IMG/VR virus record: IMGVR_UViG_3300012007_000010 | Location: 64,001-128,000 of that record | Source of the DNA: a virus | Taxonomy: Duplodnaviria > Heunggongvirae > Uroviricota > Caudoviricetes | Length of the DNA stretch: 64,000 nucleotides | Direction: 5' to 3' (one strand) | Shown here: in pieces, positions 26,288-49,649 of the stretch | How positions within the stretch are numbered: position 1 is the first letter of the stretch | Layout of the letters: each line of letters begins with the position of its first letter | Translations under genes and position numbers: made by a program | The notes under the pieces: generated by a model | The model's database searches: none | Told to the model about the DNA's origin: nothing | Seen by the model: only the letters and a program-made list of their open reading frames with translations

Positions 26288-26506
26288 ATGAAAGAGCCTA
26301 AGAACGTCTGCGAGATGAGCCGCAGGCAGATTAACGCCTATTTCCGCCAGCACGACGAGAGCCGACTATGGCCCGTCTGCGGGCGGTTCAATGCCACGGA
26401 GCGGGCCATCAGGCGCACAAGGCGCAACGGCTTCGGGGCAAACGGCGGCCTGGAGTACTATCTGGCCGTGGAGAGAGAGTTAAGTGAAATCGTAAATGCA
26501 GCGTAA
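26288..26506 (+). CDS. Hypothetical protein, ends -NAA
   Basis: TGAGG-N9-ATG. Confidence 0.6.
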   Translation: MKEPKNVCEMSRRQINAYFRQHDESRLWPVCGRFNATERAIRRTRRNGFGANGGLEYYLAVERELSEIVNAA

Positions 26507-26526
26507 CAATAAAATCAGAAACAAGT

Positions 26527-26649
26527 ATGGCAAAGACTGTATCAATCAACAAGACACGCAAGGCCATCGCCTATGCGTATAACGTGAGTATCGACAATAT
26601 TCCCGAGGAAATCGAGGATCAGTTTATCAACTATCGCAAAGCAGCATGA
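26527..26649 (+). CDS. Small hypothetical protein (40 aa), ends -RKAA
   Basis: Translated by hand: MAKTVSINKTRKAIAYAYNVSIDNIPEEIEDQFINYRKAA. Confidence 0.6.
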   Translation: MAKTVSINKTRKAIAYAYNVSIDNIPEEIEDQFINYRKAA

Positions 26650-26652
26650 CCT

Positions 26653-26922
26653 ATGGCAATAATGAGCGACGCGCAGATTGCTGCGCAGTATTCGGACTTC
26701 AAGATTCTGACACTATCGGTGGAGGAGAAGGACGACTATTTCACGGGGTGCGTAGAGATAGAGTTTCCTAATGCCGACAACATCACGTTCGACGGCTATA
26801 AGTGTGACAACTTTATCGGCTATGACAAGACTGGCAACCGTATTGCCTTCGACAACTGGTACCCAGACGAGGTGTACTACAATCTGTGTCAACGAATCAA
26901 CAAACAACGTAAAGCAGCGTGA
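26653..26922 (+). CDS. Hypothetical protein, ends -RKAA
   Basis: 89 aa. Confidence 0.7.
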   Translation: MAIMSDAQIAAQYSDFKILTLSVEEKDDYFTGCVEIEFPNADNITFDGYKCDNFIGYDKTGNRIAFDNWYPDEVYYNLCQRINKQRKAA

Positions 26923-26926
26923 GACT

Positions 26927-28036
26927 ATGGCAAACGAGATTAAGACAGCGAACGGAGTGGAGTACCGCTTCGTGGGCGAGTATGGCAGCATCCGCATGGA
27001 GAACGCCAAGACCATCAACCGCTATCTGGAACTGAAGAGCGACGAACCTGACACGGAGAAGTATGGCGTGTTCTTCGCCTTCGGCAACGACCAGTTTGAG
27101 GAGGGACGCAAACGCCTTATCGCCAAGGGCTACCTGAAGGAGGGCGAGAAAGTGTGCTCGGCTGGCATGGGGCTGTATGGCATCAGCGAGGAGATAGACC
27201 GCTATCTGGGTTTCTATAAGCAGCGTCACAAGCTGCAGGGGCAGGAGTGTAGCCCGCAGGAGGTGTACTTCTACGAGTGGAACAACCACGAGTGCATGGT
27301 TTCTATGGACGACGATCCTGCGCTGAAACTGATTATCGACATCTTCGGCAAAGAGGCGGCGCACAAGATTAAGCGCGTCTATCCCGGCACTCCTACCAAC
27401 ATACTGGCACCGCTGACGGAGCGCGACAAACATCTGGGCGAGTATGACCACACGCTGAGAATGCTGGGGCGCATGGAGTTCGACCTGCACGGGTTCTTCA
27501 GCGATGGCGACTGTCGCTATCAGCGGCCCGAAGACCTATGGGCGGGCTGCGTAAAAGGCGAGATACAGAAGACAAGGGAACTATACAATGCCCTGCCAGA
27601 CGACATTAAGGACGCTTCGCCTATGACGAAGCAGGAGATAGACGACTATGCCCGACGGCTGGAGCAGTGGGCTGACGCGGAGTTCTCGAAAGCGGAGTAC
27701 GACCCCGTGCCAACGACCCGGCGCGAAGACTTGCCGCAGGAGATTGAACTGCAGAACAAACTCTACTATCGTGACGACGACGGCAACTATCAGACACCGA
27801 CGCACGTATGGTTCTCGTGCGACTCGCGCCGCTGGCACCAGGACGAGCGCATGACGCACGGCAGGGCTATGACAGCCTATCTGGGCAAGAATGGTACGAC
27901 GCTGACGCCGGTACTAATCAGCTGCTCGACCGCGCTGGGCATGAAGCCCTATCGGAGGGACGACCTGTGCAACGTGTCGGCCAAGTATGAGTATAAGCCG
28001 CTGCACGGCAGACTGTATGGGTTCTATTACGAGTAA
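26927..28036 (+). CDS. Multidomain protein with LPD11-like central domain
   Basis: VFFAFGNDQFEE module, then MLGRMEFDL..FF..LWAG....Q..RELYNALP..MT..EID.Y resembling LPD11. Confidence 0.6.
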   Translation: MANEIKTANGVEYRFVGEYGSIRMENAKTINRYLELKSDEPDTEKYGVFFAFGNDQFEEGRKRLIAKGYLKEGEKVCSAGMGLYGISEEIDRYLGFYKQRHKLQGQECSPQEVYFYEWNNHECMVSMDDDPALKLIIDIFGKEAAHKIKRVYPGTPTNILAPLTERDKHLGEYDHTLRMLGRMEFDLHGFFSDGDCRYQRPEDLWAGCVKGEIQKTRELYNALPDDIKDASPMTKQEIDDYARRLEQWADAEFSKAEYDPVPTTRREDLPQEIELQNKLYYRDDDGNYQTPTHVWFSCDSRRWHQDERMTHGRAMTAYLGKNGTTLTPVLISCSTALGMKPYRRDDLCNVSAKYEYKPLHGRLYGFYYE

Positions 28037-28079
28037 ATAAATTCATTCATCAACAAATCAAAATTCGGAGGACGAAGTT

Positions 28080-28946
28080 ATGGCAAACGAGACAATGAAG
28101 GTGGCCGACCTTATCGGCAAGAGTATCAGCAACGGCGGCAACGCCAAGTACACAATCAACAGCATCGAGGGCGACAAGGTGAAGGTGACGTTCCAGATGG
28201 GCGATAGCGAGGGTAAGCCTATGACTATGGGTGTGGCCCAGGTGGAGAAGCTGTTGCAGGGTGGCTGGACTGTTCAGGGAAGTGAAGAGTGTAGAGTGAA
28301 GAGTGAAGAGTTTGCTACCGCACAGGAGGCTCCCAAGGGCGAAGAGCCGAAGGCTAAGACGGTGAAGATGGAGCCGGAGCCTAAGCCCAAGCAGGAACAG
28401 CCCGCCAAGCCCAAGGTGACGCTGAAGCGCAAGCAGCCGCAGGCGGAGACTGAAACCAAGGCGGGCAAGCTGGTGTATAGCACTTATACGAATGCGAAGG
28501 GCAAGACGTGCGCCAAAATCAGCGGATTCACTGAGACGGACGCTGCCTATCAGAAGGAGGCCGCTGCCAGCCTGCACGGCTCGGCTACCTACGAGAACAC
28601 GAAGCAGGGGCGCGTGCAGGGGCGCGTGAACTTCCTGCTATTCGGTCCCCGCTATGCGGGGGTGGCAAAGACCATCTGCCAGATGCTCAACGAGGGCAAG
28701 ACGGTGGCCGACTGTCAGGCGGTGGTGGATGCCGCCACCGAGGAGCGTATGGCAAAGCGCGAGGAGTGGAAGCAGAAGCGCGAGACCTACCGCCAGGAGC
28801 GCGAGGAACATGGGGCAGCCAACCCTGAAACCAAGGTAAATGGAAAGGCTTACTCATCGGCTGACGTGGCCGCTATCCTACAGAAAGTGATGGCGGGCGG
28901 AAAGTTGCCCAAGGACATCGAGGAAGCTATGATGAAGGCGGCATGA
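28080..28946 (+). CDS. Hypothetical protein, ends -MKAA
   Basis: 288 aa; in-frame heptamer repeat at 28281. Confidence 0.8.
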   Translation: MANETMKVADLIGKSISNGGNAKYTINSIEGDKVKVTFQMGDSEGKPMTMGVAQVEKLLQGGWTVQGSEECRVKSEEFATAQEAPKGEEPKAKTVKMEPEPKPKQEQPAKPKVTLKRKQPQAETETKAGKLVYSTYTNAKGKTCAKISGFTETDAAYQKEAAASLHGSATYENTKQGRVQGRVNFLLFGPRYAGVAKTICQMLNEGKTVADCQAVVDAATEERMAKREEWKQKRETYRQEREEHGAANPETKVNGKAYSSADVAAILQKVMAGGKLPKDIEEAMMKAA

Positions 28947-28979
28947 GGGAGAATTGAAGAATTGAAAAATTGAAGAGTC

Positions 28980-29474
28980 ATGGATAAGGATTTCTATAAA
29001 GACCTGACGGCTGCCCTGCGTAATTCGGGGGCAGCTGGTCAGGCTGCACCGAAAGGTGACAGCAATAAGAGTGCGCCTAAGACGAGCACCGCCAAGACTG
29101 CGCCCAAGACCGACACACCCAAGACGAAGGGCGGGGCGAAGGCTGCGAGTGAGCGAGGGCAGAACGGAACTCGTTCAGGTTCTGCTGAGCGTGAGCAGGC
29201 TCGACCGAAGGTCAAGTATGTCATCCCCAAGGAGTTTAAGCAGGCTATCGAGGACTATCTGACGGGTCGGCCAGACATGAGCGAGAAGCTGAAGCAGACG
29301 GGGAAGTCGATAGACAAATGCTGCGAGTATATCTATGGCCGCATGCTGAAGCGGGCGCAGAAGGAGCGCGGCGGGGCTACCACCGTAGGGATGTATGTGG
29401 CACCGGAGGAAATCTTCGGCATGGCCGTGCATTACTACGACGAGACCGACGAGAGTTTGAAGAAGGAGGCGTAG
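28980..29474 (+). CDS. pcfK: PcfK-like protein
   Basis: FKQAIEDYL...KSIDKCCEYI...EEIFGMAVHYYDE. Confidence 0.8.
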   Translation: MDKDFYKDLTAALRNSGAAGQAAPKGDSNKSAPKTSTAKTAPKTDTPKTKGGAKAASERGQNGTRSGSAEREQARPKVKYVIPKEFKQAIEDYLTGRPDMSEKLKQTGKSIDKCCEYIYGRMLKRAQKERGGATTVGMYVAPEEIFGMAVHYYDETDESLKKEA

Positions 29475-29478
29475 GACT

Positions 29479-30792
29479 ATGACACAGAAGGAGTTTGAAC
29501 GGCAGTGTATCGCCATCAACAACCGGCTGCGGGAGCCGGGCGAGGCGACCCAGAAGTGGATAGCCGCCAAGATATTTCCCGCAGGACTTATCAGTAGGTC
29601 ATATCGCCGCCGAAGGGTGCAGTATTGCTCGGAGTGCGGCAGCGAGATAGGCGTGCCGACACAGAAGGTGTGTCCCTGCTGTGGCGCACAGTGGACGGCA
29701 GAGCCGGAGGAGTGGGAGACGCGCCAGTCGGACTACCACATGGTAATGGAGGCCAAAGGCGATATCCAGGTGTGCCGCATCTACCGCGCCGACCGCTATA
29801 CGCACATCTACAAGAAGGTGCGTATGTATGTGGCCGAGGTGGAGCGCATTATGTATGCTCCGACGGGCGAGCGCAGGGTATTCGCCAAGTCGATACAGGG
29901 CATGTCTTATTACTACGACGCCTTCAGCTGGGGTTCGCCTATCACGCTGAAGCGCGAGGGCAAGGGGATGTCGTGGAGCGCCATGATGCGCTACAACCTG
30001 ACGGTGGCGGGCTATACTATCAAAAGCCTCACACAGCAGTGGCAGCACAAGGAGATACCGGCACTGCTGAACCGCTGGGAGGGCAACACCAGTGCGCTGC
30101 GGGTGATAGCCTATCCGTGGGGCGAGACGCTGGCGAAGACGGGGCAGGTGAAACTCTTCAGCTACTTTGTCAAAGAAAAGGAACTGCTGCCACGTGGAAT
30201 GGAACATGCGCTGAACATCTGCACCCGTAATCACTACGAGATAAGCGACCCGACGATGTGGCTCGACCATATCGCTATGCTCCGACAGTTTGGGCTCGAC
30301 ACCCACAACGCCCACTATGTGTGTCCCAAGGACCTACGGGCAGCGCACCAGCTGCTGGTTGACCGCCGCAACCGTGAGCGAGTGAAGCGAGAGGCAGAAC
30401 AGCGTGCCCGCCGCTATGCTGAGCGGCTGCAACAGATGGGGCAGGAGAAGGCCGACTATCAGCAGCAGTGGGGCAAGATGCTATCACTGCAGTTGACGGC
30501 AAAGAACCTGGACATACAGCCGCTGCACACAGTGGATGAATTTGCCGCAGAAGGTGCCGCCATGCACCACTGCGTGTTCGAGAATGGCTACTACAAGTCG
30601 AAGACAAACCTTATCCTCTCGGCCAAAGACGATGAGGGGCATCGGTTGGCCACTATTGAGTACAGCATAGGCACGGGCAGCATCAAACAGTGCCGTGCGG
30701 CCTGCAATGCCGTGCCAGAGAGGGATGCGGAGATACGGACGCTTATCACCAGTCACCGGCAGGACTTCGAGCGGCTGATGAAGGCGGCGTGA
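29479..30792 (+). CDS. pcfJ: PcfJ-like protein, ends -MKAA
   Basis: N-terminal CxxC/CxxC ribbon, C-terminal EFAAEGAAMHHCV domain; follows pcfK. Confidence 0.85.
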   Translation: MTQKEFERQCIAINNRLREPGEATQKWIAAKIFPAGLISRSYRRRRVQYCSECGSEIGVPTQKVCPCCGAQWTAEPEEWETRQSDYHMVMEAKGDIQVCRIYRADRYTHIYKKVRMYVAEVERIMYAPTGERRVFAKSIQGMSYYYDAFSWGSPITLKREGKGMSWSAMMRYNLTVAGYTIKSLTQQWQHKEIPALLNRWEGNTSALRVIAYPWGETLAKTGQVKLFSYFVKEKELLPRGMEHALNICTRNHYEISDPTMWLDHIAMLRQFGLDTHNAHYVCPKDLRAAHQLLVDRRNRERVKREAEQRARRYAERLQQMGQEKADYQQQWGKMLSLQLTAKNLDIQPLHTVDEFAAEGAAMHHCVFENGYYKSKTNLILSAKDDEGHRLATIEYSIGTGSIKQCRAACNAVPERDAEIRTLITSHRQDFERLMKAA

Positions 30793-30823
30793 GTTGAGAA
30801 TTGAAATTTAAACATTCAAAGTT

Positions 30824-31897
30824 ATGGCAACAAAAAGAAACAACGGAGGCCAGCAGAAGAAGCGCGGCTTCCAGATGAACGATCGGCAAAAAGAGAAGTA
30901 TGCCGAGTTATTTACAAGTGCGCTCGACCAGATGGAGGACGCACAGTGGACGAAGCCGTGGGTGGCACCCCGGCACATGGAACCCGCGAACTATCAACGC
31001 AGGAACAAGCCCTATCGAGGGATGAACAACTTCATCCTGACCCTGCTATGCGCTATCAAGGGGTGGGAGACACCGCTGTTCCTCACCTTCGACCAGCTGA
31101 CGGACATGGGGCTATCGCTCAATATGATGACGGACGAGGACGGGAATGTTATCCTGAAGGACAACGGCATGCCGCTGTTCGAGGGTAGCTTCCCAGTGGT
31201 GAAGATGCTGCCTCACTTCTATAAGGACGGCAAGCGGCTCACACCAAAGGAGTATGACGAGCTGGACGAGGAAGAGCAGGAGAAGTGCCGCAAGTTCTTC
31301 AGCATGAGAGCCTGGCCTGAGTTTAACCTATCGCAGACGGACTTCAAGGCGAAGTTCCCGGAGAAGTGGGAGGAGCTGACCCGTCTGCCGGAGCACGACT
31401 ATCAGGCTGGTACCCGCGATGAAGTGCTGGAGCGGATGATCATGCAGGGCGAGTGGCGCTGCGCTATCAAGTTCACGGGACACGAGAGCTACTACAGCCC
31501 CTCGAAGGACATCATCTGCCTGCCGGAGCGCAGCCACTTCCTCGGCGACGAGCTGTTCTATTCGACGGCTATTCACGAGATGGCGCACTCTACGGCGGGC
31601 GAACTGAAGCGCGACATGGGCGGTGGAGGCTTCGGCAGCGAGGGCTATGCCCGTGAGGAGTTCTGCGCCGAGCTGACGGCGGCGTGCGTCTGCTCTATGC
31701 TGGGCATCGGGCGACTGCTCGACGAGCAGCACATTGCCTACGTCAACAGCTGGCGCAAGGCTATCCGCGACGACAAGGACTTCATTCCGCAGGTCATCGA
31801 CCATGTGCAGCGGGCCACAAATTATATCCTGCGCCGCTACGACGAGGTGAACAAGGCGATGCACCCGCTGATGCTGCCTATGCCGATGGCGGCGTGA
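30824..31897 (+). CDS. ardC: ArdC-like antirestriction ssDNA-binding/zincin protein, ends -MAA
   Basis: WTKPW, YRGMN, FLTFDQ; IHEMAHST zincin; YAREEFCAEL. Confidence 0.9.
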   Translation: MATKRNNGGQQKKRGFQMNDRQKEKYAELFTSALDQMEDAQWTKPWVAPRHMEPANYQRRNKPYRGMNNFILTLLCAIKGWETPLFLTFDQLTDMGLSLNMMTDEDGNVILKDNGMPLFEGSFPVVKMLPHFYKDGKRLTPKEYDELDEEEQEKCRKFFSMRAWPEFNLSQTDFKAKFPEKWEELTRLPEHDYQAGTRDEVLERMIMQGEWRCAIKFTGHESYYSPSKDIICLPERSHFLGDELFYSTAIHEMAHSTAGELKRDMGGGGFGSEGYAREEFCAELTAACVCSMLGIGRLLDEQHIAYVNSWRKAIRDDKDFIPQVIDHVQRATNYILRRYDEVNKAMHPLMLPMPMAA

Positions 31898-31969
31898 AGC
31901 CCCACCCCCGCCCCTCCCCGATTGGAGAGGGGAGTATATAGACTATTCAAAGAAAAAATTCAAACGACT

Positions 31970-32173
31970 ATGACAAAAGAAGAAATTGCAAGACAGAAAG
32001 TAATTGAGAATATCACAGGTATGCTCCAGACCACGCCGTTCACCTTCGAGTTCAAGGTGGTGAAGAAGCCCAAGGGCATCAAGATTATCCACGAAGTGAC
32101 GCAGGAGCAGATGGACGCGCTGACCCTTCAGATGGTGGAGCGCAGTAGCAGTATCGAGAAAGTGGAGGAGTGA
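31970..32173 (+). CDS. Hypothetical protein
   Basis: ACGACTATG start. Confidence 0.65.
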   Translation: MTKEEIARQKVIENITGMLQTTPFTFEFKVVKKPKGIKIIHEVTQEQMDALTLQMVERSSSIEKVEE

Positions 32174-32188
32174 AAAACGATTACGACT

Positions 32189-32707
32189 ATGGCAACATTA
32201 GCAGACGAGCTGCGCAGTGAGATTATGCAGCAGTGCAAGGAGAATACAAAGAGCTTCCTTACAAGACGGGAGCATGTTATCAACGAGATAAGGAGCGGCA
32301 AACGTGAGGTGTTCTTTACATTGAGACGTCACTATTGCAATTACGAGGACGAACGTAAAGCAGAGCGTGAAGTGGAAAAGAATGTCGCCCATCCTGAAGG
32401 CTATCGCCTGTCGAGCTCAGGATGTGTGGACAACGTGGGCATCACCTACCGCAACGGGAAGCACTATGCGCAATTCATTAAAGGCAACAACTGGTACGAC
32501 AAGTCGGACTGTCAGTATGTGGACGTTGACGATACGCCGTATTGGAGAAAGGACTATCTGTATAACCGTGAGGAACTGCTCGATCTGGGCGGTTATTTCG
32601 AGCGTGAGGGCTTCCGGGTGTTCGTCAGCCTGTGCAGCGACTACGACGCACGATATCCTTATACCTACAACGCATTTAATATTGCTGACTTGATAGTGAC
32701 ACTCTAA
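32189..32707 (+). CDS. Hypothetical protein
   Basis: ACGACTATG start. Confidence 0.7.
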   Translation: MATLADELRSEIMQQCKENTKSFLTRREHVINEIRSGKREVFFTLRRHYCNYEDERKAEREVEKNVAHPEGYRLSSSGCVDNVGITYRNGKHYAQFIKGNNWYDKSDCQYVDVDDTPYWRKDYLYNREELLDLGGYFEREGFRVFVSLCSDYDARYPYTYNAFNIADLIVTL

Positions 32708-32720
32708 CAGCGTAACAACT

Positions 32721-33086
32721 ATGGCTAACGACTATCAGACATACGGTGAGCGGCGCATGATTGACGGTGTCGCTCACTATAGCCGAGATGAGCGCAGCGA
32801 CGGGCTGACCTACGGCTACGTGTACTGGAACGAGCGGGCCTTCAGGGAGCAGCCCGACGAGGTGTGCTACATTCCGGAGCACGCCTTCGACGACGTGCAG
32901 CCGGTGAGGGTGGACGGCACGGACTACTATCCCGCCGAAGAAGTGGAAGGCTATACGAGGCGCGACCTGGAGCGGATGCTGGAGGGCGAGACCGACGAGG
33001 ACGGCGACGCTATCACGGTGGAGGACTTCTTTCAGTCGCTCTTCTGGTGCTACCCCGAAACGAGACTGATGGAACTGACGTATTAA
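32721..33086 (+). CDS. Hypothetical acidic protein
   Basis: 121 aa. Confidence 0.7.
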   Translation: MANDYQTYGERRMIDGVAHYSRDERSDGLTYGYVYWNERAFREQPDEVCYIPEHAFDDVQPVRVDGTDYYPAEEVEGYTRRDLERMLEGETDEDGDAITVEDFFQSLFWCYPETRLMELTY

Positions 33087-33108
33087 CAAACAGAAAACGA
33101 AACGAACT

Positions 33109-33609
33109 ATGGCAGTAAGAAACATGGACGCTATTGAGCGTCATGGCAACATGATTGCCGAGCAGAAGGCCAACGAGCGCAAGATGCGTGAGGAGAGTTT
33201 CTGGCAGAGAGTGAACACTATCAGGGCGTGCCACGATGATGCGGTGGACTTCATCGACACGGTGGATGCGCTGGCTAAGAACGGACTGTGCGGCAGGTTC
33301 GACGAGTGGATGAAGCAGCAGAACGTGACGTTTGAAGGGTACAGGGGATTGATACGAGTATGCTGCCTGTCTGGGCGCAAGGAGTCGGCACTGGTCGGCT
33401 ACTATCCGAAGAAAGACGAGGTGCATTTCGGATGGAACGGCTACGGTATGGGCGAATCATACGACGTGAAGTCGCCGGGACAGATGGCCGACTATGTGAT
33501 ACACACCCGTATGGTGGCCGACCGTCACTACGACGAGGGCCTGACCAAGCTGGCCGCACGGCTGCAGCCGTTCCTGACGGCATTCTTTGAGTGGGTGAAA
33601 ACGATTTAA
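33109..33609 (+). CDS. Hypothetical protein
   Basis: 166 aa. Confidence 0.7.
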   Translation: MAVRNMDAIERHGNMIAEQKANERKMREESFWQRVNTIRACHDDAVDFIDTVDALAKNGLCGRFDEWMKQQNVTFEGYRGLIRVCCLSGRKESALVGYYPKKDEVHFGWNGYGMGESYDVKSPGQMADYVIHTRMVADRHYDEGLTKLAARLQPFLTAFFEWVKTI

Positions 33610-33621
33610 ACGATTACGACT

Positions 33622-34011
33622 ATGGGACAATGTTATTCTGTGGAAATCAAAGCGAGATTCACTGACGAGGAGGGCGCAAAGAAAGCGCTGCAGGCCAAAC
33701 TTGACAGGCATGAAGAGGAGCGTGTCTGCTACAACCTGGACCACTTCAAGGAACTTGGCATAGGCACTGACAACCTGCACGACCTGATTGGCATATTCTT
33801 CGGCGGATGGAAGGGGAGACTCGAAACTGCACCTGCCGACAAAACGTGGGAGTTTGCCGACTTCGATGCCTCCTATGGCTGGGAGAGTGTTATGATGGAA
33901 GCCTTCGAGGTAATCGCGCCCTACTTGTCTGACGACTCTGAAATTATGATCTGGCCCGATTCCGGCTGCGACCACGGAACGGTCAGGAACGGGAAATGCA
34001 AATGGGCATAA
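33622..34011 (+). CDS. Hypothetical protein
   Basis: ACGACTATG start. Confidence 0.7.
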   Translation: MGQCYSVEIKARFTDEEGAKKALQAKLDRHEEERVCYNLDHFKELGIGTDNLHDLIGIFFGGWKGRLETAPADKTWEFADFDASYGWESVMMEAFEVIAPYLSDDSEIMIWPDSGCDHGTVRNGKCKWA

Positions 34012-34029
34012 CTAAAACGAATAACGACT

Positions 34030-34419: not shown

Positions 34420-34424
34420 TGACT

Positions 34425-34580
34425 ATGGCAGAAGAAGTAACTACAGAGAAGAAGTACAAGAACTGGAACGTGTGGCGTGACGGCAAGATGAAGAAAATAA
34501 TAACCGTGCCGATGACTACCGGACAGGCGCTGAAGCATTTCAAGGCTGACGCGGTGGAAGGATGTGAGTTGAACGAGTAA
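34425..34580 (+). CDS. Small hypothetical protein
   Basis: GACTATG start after previous stop. Confidence 0.55.
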   Translation: MAEEVTTEKKYKNWNVWRDGKMKKIITVPMTTGQALKHFKADAVEGCELNE

Positions 34581-34590
34581 AACAAGAACT

Positions 34591-40845: not shown

Positions 40846-41961
40846 ATGCTACGCGCTTATAAATACCGCATCTATCCCACCGACGAGCAGAAACAGATGC
40901 TCGCCAAGACCTTCGGCTGCTGCCGCTATGTGTATAACTGGGCGCTGAGGAAAAGAGAAAGTGTCTGGAAAAAGGAACATCGACGGATACAGGAAGCAGA
41001 AATGAAAAGACTGATAGTCTCAGAATTGAAACATGGGAAAGCAAAATGGCTGTTAGAGGTAAGCGACAGCGCTGTTAGTTTCGCTATCGACAATCTTTAT
41101 GAGGCGTATGACAGGTATTTCGATAAGAAGGCAAACCTGCCGAAGTTTCATGTAAAGGAATCGCATCAAAGTTTTCGAGACCGAAGGAAGAAAAACAGAC
41201 GGAATATTCGTGTGGATTTTAAGAAATCGACACTAACAATTCCGAGGATTAAAAAAATTCCATGCCGATTCCATCGCGAATTTGATGGCGAAATAAGACA
41301 AGTTCACGTATCGAAGACGGCCTCTGGCAAATACTTTGCGAGTCTGTTGGTTGAAACGGGAGAACCATTGCCTATTGTTCCGCAGATTGACGCGGAAAGT
41401 ACGATAGGAATAGATACAGGCATTCATACCTATGCAACGCTTTCAGACGGCGAAGTTTTTGATAAACCTCCACGAAACAAAAAGGAATATCGAAGAATCA
41501 AGATATTGGAACGTCGAATGCAAAAGATGACAATTGGTAGCCGTAAATATAACATTTTGAAACGTCGGCGTGCTGCATTGTATGAGAAAGATACTAATCG
41601 CAGACATGATTACATTCATAAGAAAACGCATTATCTTGCATACGAAAAAGAGGCCAGTGCATATAGCGTGGAAACTTTGTGTGTTAAAGAAATGACAAAA
41701 AATGAGCGGATTTCAAAGCAGGTTAGGTATAATTATTTTCAAGGGTTCTATAGGCAATTGGAATATAAATGTGCGTGGAACGGGAAGCGTCTCTTGAAGA
41801 TTGATCGCTATGCCCCATCATCAAAAATATGTAGCGTTTGCGGTTATGTAAATCCAAATGTCAAATGGGGTATGTATAAGTGGGTATGTCCTGCTTGCGG
41901 TACACAACATGACCGTGATTTGAATGCGGCTATGAATATAAAAGCCATTAGTCTTGGTTAA
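40846..41961 (+). CDS. tnpB: IS200/IS605-family RNA-guided nuclease TnpB
   Basis: MLRAYKYRIYPT HTH; RuvC D (GIDTG), E (SVETL), D (HDRDLNAA); CxxC/CxxC zinc finger. Confidence 0.95.
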   Translation: MLRAYKYRIYPTDEQKQMLAKTFGCCRYVYNWALRKRESVWKKEHRRIQEAEMKRLIVSELKHGKAKWLLEVSDSAVSFAIDNLYEAYDRYFDKKANLPKFHVKESHQSFRDRRKKNRRNIRVDFKKSTLTIPRIKKIPCRFHREFDGEIRQVHVSKTASGKYFASLLVETGEPLPIVPQIDAESTIGIDTGIHTYATLSDGEVFDKPPRNKKEYRRIKILERRMQKMTIGSRKYNILKRRRAALYEKDTNRRHDYIHKKTHYLAYEKEASAYSVETLCVKEMTKNERISKQVRYNYFQGFYRQLEYKCAWNGKRLLKIDRYAPSSKICSVCGYVNPNVKWGMYKWVCPACGTQHDRDLNAAMNIKAISLG

Positions 41962-42123
41962 AAAGACTCTACCTTTGGGGCGAAGGGAAGTAATGTCCGT
42001 GGAGATTGGGGTATCGGTCACCAGCCGTTGCGCTTAACAAAGTAAAACGGAATGTCTATGAAGCGGAAAGACAAAGAGGATTTTCCTCGATGTTGTAGCT
42101 CACTTTGGAGACTCTAAGTTCAA
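41962..42123 (+). mobile_element. TnpB omega-RNA scaffold / IS605 right end and probable guide
   Basis: GAGGATTTTCCTC hairpin then GTAGCTCAC ending at 42103, typical of IS605 right ends; guide would begin TTTGGAGACTCTAAG. Confidence 0.6.
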
Positions 42124-42188
42124 GTTTCACAGGTTCATATTTGTGGGACTTGAACTTAAATTTTATTATGAATTTAAATTTTACAACA

Positions 42189-45100
42189 ATGAGTAAATTA
42201 CAAAGACTGCGCGACAACATAGCCGCGCTAAAACATGCACTGTCTTCATGCAGCGAGTACGACAACACTATCTTGAACAAGTATAGTGGCTTTGGTGGGA
42301 TGACATTTGTGCTGAACCCGCTGGAGCCGACGGCGTGGAGCAAGAGCGACATGGTGTACTATCAGGACACCGTGCGGCTGCACGAGCTGCTGAGAGAGGA
42401 AGCAGGGAGCGACAAGGAGTATCAGGCGTGGGTGGAGAGTCTGAAGGCGAGCACGCTGACGGCTTACTATACGCCACGGGAGATTGCGGAAGCCATCTTC
42501 AAGGCTATCTACTGCCACGGCGAGAAGACATTCTATGCCAAGCGCTTCCTGCCTAAGACGATGCTCGACCCTGCGGCTGGCATGGCGGTGTTCGGACGCG
42601 CCGCCATGCTCAGTTCGGCAGGCAGCCGTCAGCCGGACGTGACGATGTATGAGAAGGACTTGCTGACGGGGCTGCTTCTCAAACGAATGTACCCTTGGGC
42701 TGAGATTTATAACAAGGGCTTCGAGACTATCCCGGCTTCGGAGCTGGGCAAGTATGACCTGGTGAGCACGAATGTTCCGTTTGGGGATGTGCGCATTTTC
42801 GACCCGGAGTATAGCAACTCGAAGAGCCAGGTACGCAGGGAGGCGGCGAAGATGATTCACCGCTACTATGTGCTGAAAGGACTGGACTGCCTGCGAGAGG
42901 GTGGTGTACTGGCGTATATCATCACGAGTAACTACCTGAACCGTGACGGTGAGCAGTTGGGCGAGGCACTGAAGCAGGCACGACTCATCGGGGCGTATCG
43001 GTTGGCGAACAATCTCTTCAAGGAGAGTGGTACCGAAGTAGGTACCGACCTCTTAGTGATGCAGAAGGACTCGAAGCGAGGCGAGCTGACCGAGGAAGAG
43101 ACGATGCTGCTGACGCAGTATGAGGACGGGGGATGCCCGACGAATATGTACTTCGATATGTGGCCGGAGCGGGTGATTGCTACGGCGTGGACGGTTGATA
43201 CGGATGCCTATGGGAAGCGGGCGTTTGTGTATAAGCACCGCGACGGGGTGCAGGGGATTGCACGGCAGCTGGGCGAGGTGCTGAGCAGGGATCTGAAGGA
43301 ATACCTCACCCCCGACCCCTCTCCGAAGGGCGAGGGGAACTTTGAGGGCGAGGGGAGTGACGATCAAAAAGGCAAGGCGAAGGAGAGGGAAGATAGTGAC
43401 CCCACCCCTGGCCCCTCCCCTACAGGGGCGGGGAGCGGCTACCGCAAGAGCGAGAAGAAGCAGGAACCAAGGATGACGGAGAAGCAGAAGGCTATCATCG
43501 CTATACACAAGGCTTACACTGCACTTTACGAATACGAGGCCAAGGAGATGACTGAGGGTGTGGAATTGCGCAAGGAGCTGAACCGACTGTATGATGCTTT
43601 CGTTGCTGAGTATGGCCCGCTGAACTATGCCCCGAACCTCGGTGACGTGAAAAAGGTGGCAAAGGAACTGCGCTCGTTGGAGTATCGCTCTACTGAGAAC
43701 GGACGTTGGACGAAGGCTGACATCTTCGACAGACCAGTGGCATTCTCGACTGACGAGATGCACAGCGTGACAGATGCTCACGAGGCGCTGGCGCAGTCGC
43801 TGAATGACTATGGCAAGCCCGATGTGCGCTATATGGCGGCACTGACGGGGAAGAGCGAGGAGGAAATCTGCGACGAGCTGGACGGGGAAATTTACTATAA
43901 TCCTCTGAGTGATGAGTGGGAGATTAAGGCGAGGTTCATCTCAGGGAATGTGATTGAGAAGATAGAGCGCATTGAAGCGCTGGTTTCAAGTTTCAATTTT
44001 CAAGTTTCTGGTGACGAACCTGGCGCAAAGGACTTGAAACCTGAAACTCGGAACTTGAAACTGGCGAGAGCGCAGAAGGCGCTCGCTGCCCTGCAGGCCG
44101 CCGTCCCTGAGCCTATCCCCTTCGACGAGCTGGACTTCAACTTGGGTGAGCGATGGGTGGACACGAAGATTTACGAGGACTTTGCCAGTGAGTTCTTCTC
44201 GATGGCTGGCAATGACTACGGCGCAAAGGTGGAGGTGACGGTGAAGTATGACCGTAACCTGGACCAGTATGCCTGCGACAACGACCGGGGCAACGAGAAA
44301 ATATATACGCAGTATGCCGTGAGCAGCGAGGCGAGCCAGTCGCTCGACGGTATGGATCTGCTGCAGCACGCACTGCAGAACAGCTGCCCGAAGATGATGA
44401 AGTATCGCCGCGACGAGATGGGGCGCAAGATTCAGCAGGGCAAGAGCTATGCCAAGGACGAGGATCCGGAGGCTACTCAAAAAGCTAACACGCTCATTGA
44501 GGAAATCCGACAGGGCTATCAGGACTGGCTCTTGCGACAGCCGAAGACGCTGCGCGACGGGCTGGCTGATAAATACAACCGATTGTTCAACTGTCATGTG
44601 AAACCGCAGTTCGACGGTTCACACCAACGATTCCCTGGCATCGACTGGGCAGGACTGGAGCAGAAGTACGGCATACCGCAGCCGGTGTATAAGGACGGCA
44701 AGAAGGTGAGCGGCGGCCTGTATAAGAGTCAGGAGGACTGTATCTGGATGCTGGTGATTAACGGCGGTGGCATCTGCGACCACGAGGTAGGCAGCGGCAA
44801 GACGCTCATTATGTGTCTCGCTGCTCACGAGATGAAGCGGTTGGGCTTCTGCCACAAGCCGATGATCATCGGACTGAAAGCCAACGTGGCTGCCATTGCC
44901 GAGACTTACATGACGGCTTATCCCAAGGCTCGTGTGCTCTACGCCAAGCACGCCGACTACAGCGGAAAGGAGCGTGAGAACTTCTTCAATCGCATGAAGA
45001 ATAACGACTGGGACGTAGTGATTATGAGCCACGACCAGTTCGGCTTCATCCCGCAGTCGGACGAGGTACAGGCCGATGTCATCCGTGAGGAGCTGAACCA

Positions 45101-47339
45101 CCTGAACGAGAGCCTGAAGGCGTTGTATGGCTCGTATGATAGCGTATCGAGCCGACTGAAGCGCGGGCTGGAGAAGAAGAAGGCCAACCTGGGAGCTAAG
45201 TTGCAGGGCTTGTTACAATCCATCGAGAAGCGTAAGTCCGACGTAGTGGACTTCAAGATGATGGGCATCGACCACATCTTCATTGACGAGAGCCACCAGT
45301 TCAAGAACCTCGGCTTCACCACCCGTCACGACCGTGTGGCAGGCTTAGGCAACTCGGAGGGCTCGAAGCGAGCATACAATCTGCTCATGGCTATTCGCAC
45401 CATTCAGCAGCGCACGGGGCGCGACCTCGGCGCGACGTTCCTCAGTGGTACGACGATTACGAATAGTCTGACGGAGCTGTACTCGCTGTTCCGTTATCTG
45501 CGACCGCAGGCGATGGCAAAGCAGGGTATCACCTGTTTTGATGCCTGGGCAGCAATATTCACCCGCAAGACTCAGGAATACGAGTTCGGACTGACCAACC
45601 AAATTGTGCTGAAGGAGCGCTTCCGCTACTTTATCAAGGTGCCTGAGCTGGCGCAGTTCTACAACGAGATAACCGACTACCGAACGGCAAAGGACGTAGG
45701 CATAGAGCGGCCTGAGAAGTATGCACGATTGATGCACATCGAGCCGACCCCCGACCAGGAGGAGTTTATACACACGCTGATGAAGTTTGCCGAGACGGGT
45801 GACTTCTCACTTATTGGTATCAACAACCCCACCAAGCAGCAGGAGATGGCGAAGATGCTGTACGCCACCGACCTCGCCCGCAAGATGTCGCTCGACATGC
45901 GGCTGATTGACCTGGCGTATGGCGACCATCCACGGAGCAAGGCGAGCATGTGCGCCAAGATGGTAGCTCAGTACTATCACAAGTTCGAGGATGTGAAGGG
46001 CACGCAGATGATTTTCAGTGACCTCTCGACCTGGCAGAACGATGGCAAGTTTAATATATATGCAGAGATAAAGCGAAAGCTGGTGGAGGACTACGGCATA
46101 CCCGCCCGCGAGATACGCTTCATACAGGAGGCACGGTGCGACACGAAGAAGAAGAAGCTCATCCACGAGGTGAACGACGGCGACGTGCGTATCCTCTTCG
46201 GCAGCACCTCAATGCTCGGAACTGGTGTGAACGCCCAGGAGCGCGTCGTGGCGGTGCATCACCTTGATACACCGTGGCGCCCCGCCGACCTGGAGCAGCG
46301 CGACGGCAGGGCCGTGCGTAAGGGCAACGTCGTTGCCCGTGACTACGGCGACAACAAGGTGGATGTGATTATCTACGCCGTAAAGCGAAGTCTGGATGCC
46401 TATAAGTTCAATCTGCTGCACTGCAAGCAGACCTTTATCCAGCAGTTAAAGCAGGGGCAGTTGGGCAAGCGTACCCTTGACGAAGGTAGCATGGACGAGA
46501 AGGGCAACATGAACTTCGCTGAGTACATGGCTATCCTCTCTGGCAATACCGACCTGCTGGAGCGTGCCAAGCTCGACAAGAAGATTGCCGCCTTAGAGGT
46601 GGAGAAGAAAAATTTCCACCGCGACCAGCGTCAGGCAGAGGAACGCCGCGACCGCCTGCAGAAGGATGTGGAGCGGCTGAAGCAGGATGTCCGGGATGCA
46701 CAGGCCGACCAGCAGCAGTATGACGCACAGAAGCAACTGGGCGAGCAGGGCGAGGTGCTGAACGCCCTGGTGCTCGACGGCTTCACCGTGCCCGAGACCG
46801 ATGCCGACGGCAAACCTCTCGACTATGCAGGACAGCAGAAGACCCTCGGTGAGCGGTTGTGGCGCATCGAGCAGACGGCTCACACACAGGGCATTCCCCT
46901 GAAAATAGGCTCGCTTTACGGCTTCGACCTGATGGTGAAGACCAACGAGCAGATTGTCCGCGATGCCGACGGCAACGAGGATGTCCTCTACACCAACTAC
47001 TTCACCGTGCAAGGCTGTCGCATCCTGCATAAGGTGAACGACGGTTATCTCTCGCACAAGTCGCCCCGTCTGGCAGCGGAGTATGGTCTGCGCTGTCTGC
47101 AGGAGCTGCCACGCCGCATCGCCAGTTGGCAGCAGTGGATAGCCGACAACAACGTGACTATTCGCCAGCTCAACGAACTGCTGAAGCAGACGTGGAGCAA
47201 GGAGGACGAGCTGCGCCGAGCCAAGGCCGACCTCGCCAAGCTCGACCGCAAGATCAACGCTGAGATGAACGGCAAGCAGTCCGGCGGATCATCGTCGGAG
47301 GGCAACACCTCCGACGGCGGAATGAAGCGGGCGGCGTAA
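42189..47339 (+). CDS. DarB-like N6-adenine methyltransferase-SNF2 helicase fusion (1716 aa), ends -RAA
   Basis: LDPAAG and TNVPFGD MTase motifs; HEVGSGKT, IDESHQFKN, HHLDTPWRPADLEQRDGR helicase motifs. Confidence 0.9.
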   Translation: MSKLQRLRDNIAALKHALSSCSEYDNTILNKYSGFGGMTFVLNPLEPTAWSKSDMVYYQDTVRLHELLREEAGSDKEYQAWVESLKASTLTAYYTPREIAEAIFKAIYCHGEKTFYAKRFLPKTMLDPAAGMAVFGRAAMLSSAGSRQPDVTMYEKDLLTGLLLKRMYPWAEIYNKGFETIPASELGKYDLVSTNVPFGDVRIFDPEYSNSKSQVRREAAKMIHRYYVLKGLDCLREGGVLAYIITSNYLNRDGEQLGEALKQARLIGAYRLANNLFKESGTEVGTDLLVMQKDSKRGELTEEETMLLTQYEDGGCPTNMYFDMWPERVIATAWTVDTDAYGKRAFVYKHRDGVQGIARQLGEVLSRDLKEYLTPDPSPKGEGNFEGEGSDDQKGKAKEREDSDPTPGPSPTGAGSGYRKSEKKQEPRMTEKQKAIIAIHKAYTALYEYEAKEMTEGVELRKELNRLYDAFVAEYGPLNYAPNLGDVKKVAKELRSLEYRSTENGRWTKADIFDRPVAFSTDEMHSVTDAHEALAQSLNDYGKPDVRYMAALTGKSEEEICDELDGEIYYNPLSDEWEIKARFISGNVIEKIERIEALVSSFNFQVSGDEPGAKDLKPETRNLKLARAQKALAALQAAVPEPIPFDELDFNLGERWVDTKIYEDFASEFFSMAGNDYGAKVEVTVKYDRNLDQYACDNDRGNEKIYTQYAVSSEASQSLDGMDLLQHALQNSCPKMMKYRRDEMGRKIQQGKSYAKDEDPEATQKANTLIEEIRQGYQDWLLRQPKTLRDGLADKYNRLFNCHVKPQFDGSHQRFPGIDWAGLEQKYGIPQPVYKDGKKVSGGLYKSQEDCIWMLVINGGGICDHEVGSGKTLIMCLAAHEMKRLGFCHKPMIIGLKANVAAIAETYMTAYPKARVLYAKHADYSGKERENFFNRMKNNDWDVVIMSHDQFGFIPQSDEVQADVIREELNHLNESLKALYGSYDSVSSRLKRGLEKKKANLGAKLQGLLQSIEKRKSDVVDFKMMGIDHIFIDESHQFKNLGFTTRHDRVAGLGNSEGSKRAYNLLMAIRTIQQRTGRDLGATFLSGTTITNSLTELYSLFRYLRPQAMAKQGITCFDAWAAIFTRKTQEYEFGLTNQIVLKERFRYFIKVPELAQFYNEITDYRTAKDVGIERPEKYARLMHIEPTPDQEEFIHTLMKFAETGDFSLIGINNPTKQQEMAKMLYATDLARKMSLDMRLIDLAYGDHPRSKASMCAKMVAQYYHKFEDVKGTQMIFSDLSTWQNDGKFNIYAEIKRKLVEDYGIPAREIRFIQEARCDTKKKKLIHEVNDGDVRILFGSTSMLGTGVNAQERVVAVHHLDTPWRPADLEQRDGRAVRKGNVVARDYGDNKVDVIIYAVKRSLDAYKFNLLHCKQTFIQQLKQGQLGKRTLDEGSMDEKGNMNFAEYMAILSGNTDLLERAKLDKKIAALEVEKKNFHRDQRQAEERRDRLQKDVERLKQDVRDAQADQQQYDAQKQLGEQGEVLNALVLDGFTVPETDADGKPLDYAGQQKTLGERLWRIEQTAHTQGIPLKIGSLYGFDLMVKTNEQIVRDADGNEDVLYTNYFTVQGCRILHKVNDGYLSHKSPRLAAEYGLRCLQELPRRIASWQQWIADNNVTIRQLNELLKQTWSKEDELRRAKADLAKLDRKINAEMNGKQSGGSSSEGNTSDGGMKRAA

Positions 47340-47343
47340 AACA

Positions 47344-47403
47344 CGGGGTGGACTTTTACCATCGGCTCTCATTAACCAGAGCCATAGGTAAAAGTTAACC
47401 CCC
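47344..47403. terminator. Long hairpin after darB-like gene
   Basis: GGGG..ACTTTTACC..GGCTCT / AGAGCC..GGTAAAAGT..CCCC. Confidence 0.5.
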
Positions 47404-47459
47404 AGTTTTCATGCCCTTTTAAATCAACGAAGAATTTCACTAATTAAAACTGAACGACT

Positions 47460-47729
47460 ATGGCAAAAGACTATGAGCGCATCTACGACGAGGCGGTGCA
47501 TCTCTGTGAGAACGGCAGTAAGATACAGGCTCTCGTACACATCCTGGGGTGCTACGGCTGTAAAAGCGAATGGCGGGAGATACGCCGCCTGCTGATGCAC
47601 GACCATCCCCTGAACTTCCGCTATACCAGCTCTTTCTTCTGGGCTATCAGCTGCGCCTATAACAATGGCTGCCACAAGATTGAGAAGAAATACGGACGGC
47701 TGGCATGGCGCAACACACTGTCCTATTAA
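47460..47729 (+). CDS. Hypothetical protein
   Basis: ACGACTATG start. Confidence 0.65.
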   Translation: MAKDYERIYDEAVHLCENGSKIQALVHILGCYGCKSEWREIRRLLMHDHPLNFRYTSSFFWAISCAYNNGCHKIEKKYGRLAWRNTLSY

Positions 47730-47750
47730 CAAACAATAAACCTTACGACT

Positions 47751-48179
47751 ATGGCATACTGGAAAGAAAACATCAACGTCGAGGTGCTGCTGCCCTTCGA
47801 TACCCCGAACTGTACCACGTCTTGGTACTGGGTAATGTTCTCCATCGCATTGGAAGAGACATGGTATCATGAAGATGCCTGGATGTATAACGCCAGCACA
47901 TATACCAACCACCGCATCAATATTTGCGGCAAGGCCAATTTGAAGAGTCTATACACAGACCCGAAGCGCGGCACCGTGGCAGACATTGACTACACCACTT
48001 ACAAACTGATGGCCTGCCGGGCCTACAGTGATACGACCGACCCACGTCACAGCAAGACGGAGCACTTCAAGGTGCGCTATGTGAGCCGTGACAAAACTCT
48101 CTCCCGCGACGAGCAGCGCAGCATGCGGCTGCACTGTATCGACTACGGAACCCACAAGGAATACAGAAACCAGAAATAA
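47751..48179 (+). CDS. Hypothetical protein
   Basis: ACGACTATG start. Confidence 0.65.
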   Translation: MAYWKENINVEVLLPFDTPNCTTSWYWVMFSIALEETWYHEDAWMYNASTYTNHRINICGKANLKSLYTDPKRGTVADIDYTTYKLMACRAYSDTTDPRHSKTEHFKVRYVSRDKTLSRDEQRSMRLHCIDYGTHKEYRNQK

Positions 48180-48196
48180 TAAATCCCCGTAAGATT

Positions 48197-48916
48197 ATGA
48201 GCAAGACAAAGAACACGGTCATCGACCAACAGAACGAGAACAACGAGAACAAGAACCAGAGTATCAACCCCCGCCAGCGAGACCAGCGCCGCCTGAGCAT
48301 CGAGACCCTGACGGCACTCAACCGCGCCGCCATCGACGCCATGAAGGAGATACGGGGAGACCGCACCACGGCAGAGGCAGCCTGCGACAGCGAACTCTAC
48401 TGCGACCTCATGCAGATATCGCTGCTCGGCTATAACCGCTGGCTCGACTACGAGCGCAAGAAGCAACAGTACCGCGACATGAAGATGAACGACCTGCTGC
48501 GGGAGCTCTACCAGCGCATGCAGATGTATCACCACTACCAGGAGTGCAAGGGCCGCGAGCTGAAAGGCATCACGTGCCGCATGGAGCAAAGCGGCGTGTT
48601 CGCCCTCGTGCTCGGAGAGTGCGCCCTCAATCTGGAGCACACCTTCGAGGACCCCGACGCCGAGTACTATGACCACCAGCGCGAAGGCCGCCTGTTCTGC
48701 ATCGGCCTGAACCTGCCCCTGCTCGAAACGGAAGATCCGGAGAATCCGGAGAGCCACCTGTCAGGCGAGTACGACGAGTTCCTGTCGTTCTGCTGCGAGT
48801 TCGACGCCGACAAGGAGTTCCGCGACGTCTATCCCTGCGAGTACAGCCACGAGGCCGCCATCCGCTCCATCCTCGCCCAGCTCGACCAGATAACCGGGCT
48901 GACTAACAAGCAGTAA
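48197..48916 (+). CDS. Hypothetical protein
   Basis: 239 aa. Confidence 0.7.
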   Translation: MSKTKNTVIDQQNENNENKNQSINPRQRDQRRLSIETLTALNRAAIDAMKEIRGDRTTAEAACDSELYCDLMQISLLGYNRWLDYERKKQQYRDMKMNDLLRELYQRMQMYHHYQECKGRELKGITCRMEQSGVFALVLGECALNLEHTFEDPDAEYYDHQREGRLFCIGLNLPLLETEDPENPESHLSGEYDEFLSFCCEFDADKEFRDVYPCEYSHEAAIRSILAQLDQITGLTNKQ

Positions 48917-48970
48917 TCACGACGAGAGAGAAATAACTAACATTTTTAACCCCCTAAAAACAAGTAACGA

Positions 48971-49039
48971 ATGATAGAAAATTGGATTATGGGCTTCTTC
49001 GCCTGGCTCTGGTTCATACAATGGGCATGCAAGAAGTGA
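48971..49039 (+). CDS. Possible 22-aa Trp-rich membrane peptide (MIENWIMGFFAWLWFIQWACKK)
   Basis: AACGAATG start context; single hydrophobic helix. Confidence 0.35.
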   Translation: MIENWIMGFFAWLWFIQWACKK

Positions 49040-49062
49040 GTATAACGAGTAAAAACAAGTAA

Positions 49063-49299
49063 ATGACTATGGCACAGAAAATCATACAGAACGGACAAAC
49101 GGTGATGAATGCGCCGGGCGAGGGGAATCCTACCTGCGCCATCATCTTCAACAACCTGACAGGAGTGAACATACAGGGCAAGAGAGAACTACAGGCGTAT
49201 CTCGCCATGATGTTCCACGATTTCCCAAAACTCACATACGGGGAAATAGGACTCTGGGAGGACGGGAAGCTAATAGACAAAGGAAACATAAACAAGTAA
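49063..49299 (+). CDS. Hypothetical protein
   Basis: 78 aa. Confidence 0.6.
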   Translation: MTMAQKIIQNGQTVMNAPGEGNPTCAIIFNNLTGVNIQGKRELQAYLAMMFHDFPKLTYGEIGLWEDGKLIDKGNINK

Positions 49300-49304
49300 C
49301 GGCT

Positions 49305-49649
49305 ATGGAATCAACAATCAAAGTGAAGGCAACGAGAAGCGAGTGGGAAATCATCGCACGCTTCTTCTGTGTGAAATACTGCTATGACAGTGTGTATGAC
49401 GGTGTGAGGAAGAGCGATGGCGAGAGCGTGTTTCTCTACAAGATAGACCTGCGACACGCCGAGGAAGTAGGACGGCTGCACGGAACCTATACCGCCAAAG
49501 GACTGGTGAAGAAACTGGCTCCTGAACACCCGTACATCGGAACGGGCTATGTGGATGACATCATAAAAGCCCTTTGCACAATCACGAAACTCTTCGGCAA
49601 TGACCTTGGATTAAAGCAACTCTTAATGGAAAAATTAAAGGCAGCGTGA
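49305..49649 (+). CDS. Hypothetical protein, ends -LKAA
   Basis: 114 aa. Confidence 0.7.
   Translation: MESTIKVKATRSEWEIIARFFCVKYCYDSVYDGVRKSDGESVFLYKIDLRHAEEVGRLHGTYTAKGLVKKLAPEHPYIGTGYVDDIIKALCTITKLFGNDLGLKQLLMEKLKAA

Follow-up and report, generated by a model that had tools for sequence, protein, structure and literature searches.

A C-terminal Ala-Ala common to unrelated early proteins of a large phage, a candidate hard-coded ssrA-like degron

Why do eleven unrelated proteins of a phage early region all end in the same two residues, Ala-Ala (hereafter -AA)? The question is raised by a 64,000-nucleotide stretch of DNA, the window, which covers bases 64,001-128,000, the second half, of the IMG/VR virus record IMGVR_UViG_3300012007_000010 (129,669 bp, rated complete). 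In the window an early/anti-defence block of 59 called genes occupies one strand (18419..53929, +), as delimited by strand runs and domain matches, and it contains all 11 of the window's -AA genes, which span 26282-49649 on the + strand. An initial annotation, made from the letters of the window, had listed these eleven C-termini, had found none elsewhere, and had proposed that they are recognition elements for the host protease ClpXP, by which early proteins would be cleared after a short pulse of activity, ahead of lysogeny or late growth. For the present analysis, genes were called on the whole 129,669-bp genome with a self-written codon-usage caller, giving 165 genes. Considering that a C-terminus is set by the stop codon and the frame only, errors in start codons are immaterial to the counts of -AA. 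As a cross-check, the C-terminal ends were also compared with database proteins and with gene calls made independently on related ENA contigs.

All eleven C-termini were recovered, each at the stop codon where it had been placed. The statement that there are none elsewhere was nearly right, but it has to be corrected for one further gene of this genome, located in the diversity-generating retroelement (DGR) region of the other genome half, outside the window, and for a low rate in related genomes. In total, 12 of the 165 genes end in -AA, 11 of 59 in the block and 1 of about 106 elsewhere. The Ala-Ala dipeptide frequency of the genome is 0.97%, from which about 1.2-1.6 such ends are expected genome-wide; the binomial probability of the excess is 1e-7 over the whole genome and 2e-14 within the region, and the Fisher test of the region versus the rest gives p = 7e-8. 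Four complete IMG/VR relatives were then fetched whole and their genes called. The block counts in the five genomes are 11/59, 11/49, 8/45, 11/53 and 10/47, always in the homologous same-strand block. When pooled, 51 of 253 block genes end in -AA versus 6 of 620 outside (p = 5e-23), and the rate outside, 1.0%, equals the chance expectation. The comparison with the amino-acid background that the initial annotation had called for thus places the -AA rate at about 20 times background, restricted to the early block, in this genome and in its relatives.

The enrichment holds when orthologous copies are collapsed. Proteins were clustered into families by homology extending to the C-terminus, and at this level 21 of 155 block families end in -AA, versus 3 of 346 outside (Fisher p = 6e-9); by sequence comparison, at least 21 families without detectable homology carry the ending. 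Three ENA loci with independent gene calls gave 10/30, 10/25 and 8/31 genes ending in -AA. The usual tail motif is [K/R]-[K/Q]-A-A. The relatives also carry -AA on genes absent here, for example a 534-aa reverse transcriptase and several small proteins. The reverse transcriptase (RVT_1, about 535 aa) lies in the early block of the relatives (G002, 88205-89809, -; L007, 12912-14519), ends in ...SWVAA and is missing from the block of this genome.

If -AA were under selection in its own right, orthologues should keep it while the preceding residues drift, a check also put forward in the initial annotation, and this is the pattern obtained: positional entropy is 0.07-0.8 bit at positions -1/-2 versus 2-3 bits upstream. 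In homologue sets of PcfJ and of the DarB-like protein anchored at the C-terminus, the entropy was 0.07-0.12 bit at -1, 0.07-0.8 bit at -2, about 2.2 bits at -3/-4 and about 3 bits further upstream. The favoured residues in such sets are K/Q/E at -3 and K/R/A at -4, and -SA, -VA and -TA are the sole common alternatives to -AA in PcfJ and DarB-like homologues. The PcfJ-domain protein (437 aa, ...RLMKAA, codons GCG GCG TGA; 29479..30792, +; PF14284, 2.5e-32) has 120 homologues in the set, of which 101 end in -AA and 18 more in -[S/V/T]A, L-L-K-A-A being frequent; its own entropy profile is 0.07 bit at -1 and 0.82 at -2 versus 2.2-3.3 upstream. The DarB-like protein, an Eco57I-type N6-methylase joined to an SNF2 helicase (about 1676-1716 aa, ...DGGMKRAA; 42309..47339, +; Pfam/PHROGs), keeps -AA in 111 of 120 homologues, and in the group of 51-60% identity 54 of 61 end in -AA and 6 in -[V/T]A, the hexapeptide tails being of about 40 kinds. 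A 288-aa protein of an unnamed family (...AMMKAA; 28080..28946, +) has numerous homologues on contigs of 110-150 kb; 119 of 120 (52-100% identity) end in -AA, on three distinct tails (MMKAA, NAMAA and KAKAA).

Across the five genomes, six core families carry -AA in 5/5 cases, with the residues before it changing and the stop and Ala codons varying synonymously. For the 40-aa protein (...NYRKAA, GCA GCA TGA; 26527..26649, +) all five orthologues end in -RKAA after different upstream residues. All five also end in -AA for the ArdC-like anti-restriction protein (ArdcN + MPTase-PolyVal, 357 aa, ...LPMPMAA; 30824..31897, +; Pfam/PHROGs) and for a 315-aa protein (...HYKAAA; 36370..37317, +; start uncertain, the reading frame being open from 36238), whose orthologues show the ends HYKAAA, HYRAAA, HYQQAA and QFRQAA. 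The DnaJ (J-domain) + LPD29 protein (472 aa, basic tail ...KAQKQAA; 37580..38998, +; Pfam) ends in -QAA in 5/5, the tails being KAQKQAA, KKVKQAA, RTARQAA and KKTKQAA and the Ala codons GCG GCG, GCG GCC or GCC GCT. The remaining four are small. The 74-aa protein (...EIVNAA, GCA GCG TAA; 26282..26506, +) has orthologues ending in ...EIVNAA (G001) and ...RIVNAA (L008); the 89-aa protein (...KQRKAA, GCA GCG TGA; 26653..26922, +) was established from its gene call, its ends and orthologue comparison; the BRCT-domain protein (88 aa, ...KRRLAA; 39033..39299, +; Pfam) has the same end in its G004 orthologue; and the 108-aa protein (...EKLKAA; 49323..49649, +) has the same end in G003, while two weaker relatives of 123 aa end in -INN and -IND.

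The ending also appears on distant members of a family. The search for ArdC covered 1.8 billion cluster representatives, and 53 divergent clusters (50% identity) with the ArdC domain at the C-terminus were counted; 11 of these end in -AA after unrelated tails (p = 3e-14), -VA being the next commonest end. On these sequences, the -AA of divergent ArdC clusters is convergent. One such ArdC lies in a CTnDOT-like conjugative transposon of a Bacteroidales-type chromosome, where it is alone in ending in -AA (1 of 29 genes). Another, 36% identical, belongs to a distinct element, L049 (GC 47%), in which 5 of 11 genes end in -AA, among them PcfJ (...VALAA) and a DarB-like protein, with GCT/GCA codons for Ala and mixed stops. 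We take the terminal Ala-Ala to be a protein-level signal, apparently under purifying selection, on many unrelated proteins of the block. Two other descriptions of the pattern were tried and discarded. The ending is not a general trait of PcfJ neighbourhoods, given that six IMG/VR loci with a distant PcfJ (37% identity), which ends in -RAAS/-RAVS, show no multi-gene enrichment. A remnant of polyprotein cleavage was also rejected: 96 proteins with a fused ArdC showed no recurring AA where the ArdC domain borders the rest.

What would read such a signal? We propose that the free -A-A-COOH, usually preceded by K or Q and, one place further upstream, by a basic residue, is a genome-encoded mimic of the SsrA tag of transfer-messenger RNA (tmRNA). 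ClpX, the host unfoldase, would take hold of the tail in its pore and pass the protein on to ClpP, FtsH or Lon being less likely readers. ArdC, PcfJ, the DarB-like methylase-helicase, the J-domain protein and their small partners would then have short half-lives, and the activity of the -AA proteins would track the early transcription burst and vanish once transcription stops. We give a probability of roughly 0.55 to this reading, in which -AA is an ssrA-like degron written into the genes and host ClpXP recognizes it, and in which we infer the identity of the reader, the instability and the benefit in timing. Taking into account that -AA persists as its upstream residues drift, the early proteins that carry it are probably short-lived by design.

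The premise from which the initial annotation started, that a terminal Ala-Ala is the element recognized by ClpX, is sustained for the presumed host clade: the Bacteroides SsrA tag, GETNYALAA, is a strong degradation tag in B. thetaiotaomicron, it nearly abolishes the signal of green fluorescent protein when fused to it, and the native tag is reported as too aggressive for engineering (bioRxiv 10.1101/2025.03.18.644028). The clpX model matches the B. thetaiotaomicron control genome, which served as a stand-in for the clade. In a screen of random C-terminal tags in E. coli the terminal Ala-Ala was a critical and necessary determinant for ClpXP, Leu further upstream and Arg at -4 helped, and a -LVA tag was degraded too (PMC10862746). 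Position -4 is often R or K in the -AA families. All 11 window proteins have the free C-terminal Ala-Ala of ClpX C-motif 1. In the AlphaFold model of ArdC (pLDDT, the per-residue confidence score, 89.8) the last helix stops at residue 346 and the LPMPMAA tail is unstructured, with residues 355-357 below 50, which suggests that the tail is exposed, beyond the final helix and within low-confidence residues. The DarB-like and J-domain tails are Gly/Ser/Asp-rich and Lys-rich, respectively, as judged by composition only.

Several points weigh against a degron. In the same E. coli screen Ala-Ala was by itself insufficient (PMC10862746), so the phage tails may be weak degrons or none. The ssrA-like Leu at -3 is not the rule, considering that the 21 family representatives have K in 7 cases, Q in 3, E in 3, M in 2, A in 2 and L in 1. 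Outside the block, -AA is as frequent as chance predicts, at the rate given above, and not depleted, which is unexpected for a universally potent degron, though buried termini would escape. In the AlphaFold model of the 288-aa protein the end is a short terminal helix (pLDDT about 64-77) and not a free tail. A preference for GCA/GCG codons and an excess of TGA stops, detailed below, are not predicted by a pure degron model. Lastly, we infer that these are large gut or rumen Bacteroidales phages, and the clade of the host is deduced partly from the named homologues retrieved in the PcfJ and DarB-like searches, which come from Prevotella sp. and metagenome-assembled genomes of Bacteroidaceae.

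By comparison with the SsrA tag itself (E. coli AANDENYALAA; Bacteroides GETNYALAA), the phage tails share the free C-terminal Ala-Ala, the critical ClpX determinant. They differ in being gene-encoded and not added by trans-translation, in being alike over just 2-4 residues, with [K/R]-[K/Q] in place of Y-A-L, and in having no SspB-type upstream element. Tagging by tmRNA was rejected, since the Ala codons sit before ordinary stops within the open reading frames and the phage has no tmRNA. Alanine tailing by RqcH/NFACT was discarded likewise: the tails are genome-encoded, and the NFACT_N model had no match in the B. thetaiotaomicron control genome, so Ala-tailing is not a relevant analogue.

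Timed removal by ClpXP through a hard-coded or unmasked Ala-Ala is well known from Caulobacter CtrA (-AA, stabilised by -DD) and from the cleaved anti-sigma factors RseA (-VAA) and RsiW. Mycobacterial anti-sigma factors are presented as a further case of an ssrA-like degron in one preprint (bioRxiv 491043). The phage proteins resemble all of these in their hard-coded terminal Ala-Ala, their degradation being putative. The former, however, are single proteins in cellular circuits, whereas about 11 unrelated proteins of one expression block are concerned in the phage genome, and the trait follows the mobile-element families PcfJ, DarB-like and ArdC. A phage precedent may be Mu: in work attributed to Flynn et al. 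in 2003, the MuA C-terminus RRKKAI is said to be ClpX C-motif 2, and the C-terminus of the Mu repressor is reportedly under ClpXP control. Both cases would have a phage protein with a basic C-terminal ClpX recognition peptide that steers a step of the life cycle, putatively so here. The Mu signal differs in that it serves the remodelling or derepression of one complex, has no Ala-Ala end and is not arsenal-wide.

The block itself is of the polyvalent-protein or plasmid leading-region type, with HU, LPD11, PcfK, PcfJ, ArdC, PcfM-like, DnaJ-LPD29, BRCT, DarB-like and HTH regulator modules. The polyvalent/anti-restriction set found with Pfam and PHROGs comprises ArdcN, MPTase-PolyVal, LPD domains, PcfJ/K and the DarB-like methylase-helicase, encoded here as separate genes and not fused into one giant protein. 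Those ending in -AA with confirmed domains (Pfam/PHROGs) are PcfJ, ArdC, DnaJ+LPD29, BRCT and DarB-like; the block neighbours HU, LPD11/DUF7659, PcfK, PcfM-like, HNH, TnpB and the HTH regulator do not. Plasmid leading regions and polyvalent proteins have been described with the same gene set (Iyer et al. 2017, PMC5512222). Leading regions are alike in ArdC, PcfJ/K/M, LPD domains and DarB-like proteins and in the logic of a short burst on entry, but there the burst is set by transcription, and no common C-terminal tag was found reported; in fused polyvalent forms of ArdC there is no AA at the domain junction.

The signal could also be read by something other than a protease. In this explanation, which we consider unlikely, -AA is an address tag recognized by a C-terminus-binding protein, either for capsid loading and injection, as P1 does with DarB, or for hand-over to a chaperone or adaptor. 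A single C-terminal motif common to unrelated proteins does look like an address, the lack of depletion outside the block would be compatible with one, and the set holds DarB-like, ArdC and polyvalent-protein modules, of a type proposed to travel with the DNA (PMC5512222; 10.1101/361121). The block, on the other hand, is devoid of the late-promoter word CTGCCCTTGATT, a 12-mer that precedes virion genes and has 6 copies in the genome and 0 in the block; its absence fits non-late expression and speaks against loading into virions. Known capsid-targeting signals are N-terminal, as in the T4 internal proteins. The set includes proteins of 37-40 aa and a J-domain co-chaperone, which are expected to be cytoplasmic, and the ArdC of the chromosomal CTnDOT-like transposon, an element with no capsid, ends in -AA too. 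Expression of ardC of plasmid R388 was reportedly required in the recipient and not in the donor (PMC7213743), and domain searches of the block found no candidate reader. The copies of CTGCCCTTGATT lie in the 3018 region of the window (-) and at genome positions 27884, 40064, 43488, 46675 and 59902; the window copy is situated upstream of a minus-strand gene of 611 aa (1134-2969).

It is also conceivable, though quite improbable, that the tails engage ClpXP for a benefit other than self-clearance, either as decoys that saturate it, for example slowing antitoxin decay in abortive infection, or by trans-targeting of bound host defence proteins. All the evidence for -AA as a selected ClpX-type signal applies here equally. 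T4 PinA and T7 Gp4.5 are phage inhibitors of Lon that blunt toxin-antitoxin defence. ClpXP is moreover linked to the control of restriction, since HsdR is degraded during restriction alleviation (PMC4231737, PMC11109961). Nevertheless, ClpXP normally degrades the tagged chain only, one dedicated inhibitor would be simpler than tagging about 20 families, and the retention of -AA on low-copy enzymes such as the 1,700-aa methylase-helicase suits self-regulation better. The broadest version of the degron reading, which we also hold to be unlikely, would make [K/R]-[K/Q]-Ala-Ala-COOH a dedicated code that, in Bacteroidales phage-plasmids and the mobile elements related to them, wires the anti-defence arsenal (PcfJ, DarB-like and ArdC, with some 20 families more) to host ClpXP, as a post-entry timer or, more radically, as ClpXP-jamming decoys or suicide adaptors that drag bound host defence proteins in.

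A further and highly doubtful explanation places selection on the RNA or on translation: a stop context R-GCR-GCR-TGA (GCR being GCA or GCG) would tune termination, read-through, reinitiation or mRNA processing, and Ala-Ala would be a by-product. The codons lend it some weight. Each of the 22 terminal Ala codons of the 11 window genes is GCA or GCG, as is the majority of those in the relatives, versus just 21% GCR-GCR among internal Ala-Ala pairs, the commonest Ala codon being GCC; -AA ends outside the block mostly use GCC or GCT. The stop is TGA in 8 of the 11 window genes (26498-49649), and in 16 of 21 -AA families versus 29 of 134 other block families. The final five codons of the BRCT gene are overlapped by a terminator-like GC hairpin (39281-39297, +) with a T run after it, so that RRLAA is encoded by the hairpin arms, with GCGGCG in the 3′ arm. 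Orthologues, however, swap stops freely among TGA, TAA and TAG and sometimes use GCC/GCT for Ala, and L049 retains -AA with GCT/GCA. Because the Ala codons vary synonymously and L049 uses different ones, the constraint appears to act on the protein. The tolerated substitutes -SA, -VA and -TA are chemically alike residues with unlike codons. A purine bias at the third base of the last two codons is also present in non-AA genes, which accounts for part of the GCR preference, not all. No information content was detected past the stop codon, so a conserved 3′ element (promoter, ribosome-binding site or recombination linker) was rejected; so was translational coupling, the gap to the next gene being the same for -AA and other block genes (Mann-Whitney p = 0.78). 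As a motif independent of gene ends, GCRGCRTGA has 22 sites on both strands, 8 at -AA ends and 14 scattered versus a rough estimate of about 5, and is not markedly over-represented. Recoding of TGA was discarded as well, since the only phage tRNAs are tRNA-Gln(CTG) and tRNA-Met(CAT), located in the window at 9229-9299 (-) and 17834-17905 (+), and none is a suppressor. That the ending has no function, and results from chance, from tails of common ancestry or from structural helix capping, is all but refuted. In favour of this view, Ala-rich helices form some of the tails (the 288-aa family) and orthologous copies are not independent counts, but the families lack detectable homology and differ in their tails, the Fisher test stands at the family level, divergent ArdC clusters gain -AA convergently, and the entropy minimum falls exactly at the last two positions.

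Returning to the degron reading, its principle is not new, because single hard-coded -AA degrons such as CtrA, cleaved RseA and RsiW are well known. What is new is that -AA is used systematically within a single phage expression block, on some 20 proteins unrelated to one another, and is so closely tied to the PcfJ, DarB-like and ArdC families. A full-text search of the literature returned no report of a C-terminal Ala-Ala common to phage early or plasmid establishment proteins, though papers on ssrA-like degrons, ArdC and ClpXP restriction alleviation exist. If the tails are degrons, these phages would control a whole anti-defence class post-translationally, through a quality-control protease of the host. 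This would be an undescribed layer of phage and plasmid establishment biology, which could escape transcript-based timing, and the need to remove ArdC or DarB-like methylase-helicases after entry would gain an explanation that can be tested. A terminal -AA in a block expressed on entry could then be used as a rule to spot candidate anti-defence or host-takeover genes among those still unannotated in Bacteroidales phages and conjugative elements, and the tails could be a natural source of degradation tags that differ in strength, for use in Bacteroides engineering.

Other features of the genome were noted. A megablast of the region against GenBank phages gave no match. The window encodes a ParA-like protein (11738-12604) and a DnaC-like loader (15419-16306), and inside the early block there is a c4-2 antisense RNA (Rfam RF02944, 48.9 bits; 40033-40110, +); c4 RNAs govern the antirepressor in immunity regions of P1/P7 type. 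The combination of a ParA-like protein, a DnaC-like loader and a c4-type RNA suggests, from sequence features, a P1-like plasmid-prophage (phage-plasmid) lifestyle. The block also contains a low-GC insert (40432-41961, +) with an HNH endonuclease gene and a TnpB/IS605 OrfB gene with a Cas12f1-like TNB domain; the closest relatives of this TnpB among the searched genome contigs are just 36% identical. In the 288-aa family a conserved C-terminal body is combined with N-terminal extensions that vary greatly (protein lengths 270-500 aa; homologues P0002-P0120) and often include a MutS_I mismatch-binding domain. The protein encoded here is a short form, with a disordered linker at residues 68-127 in its AlphaFold model. 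It was also possible to see GC-rich hairpins (CCCCGCCCC...GGGG) 3′ of several -AA genes other than BRCT, for example after ArdC (31899-31960). Short tandem repeats of 7-8 nt (AGAATTGA, AGTGAAG, ACTTGAA and others) are present in the window at 28950-28976, 18315-18345, 20053-20083, 28281-28311 and 43983-44062. Several of them lie in spacers directly 3′ of -AA genes, where the arrays of the relatives are longer (GTGAAGA, CTTGAAA).

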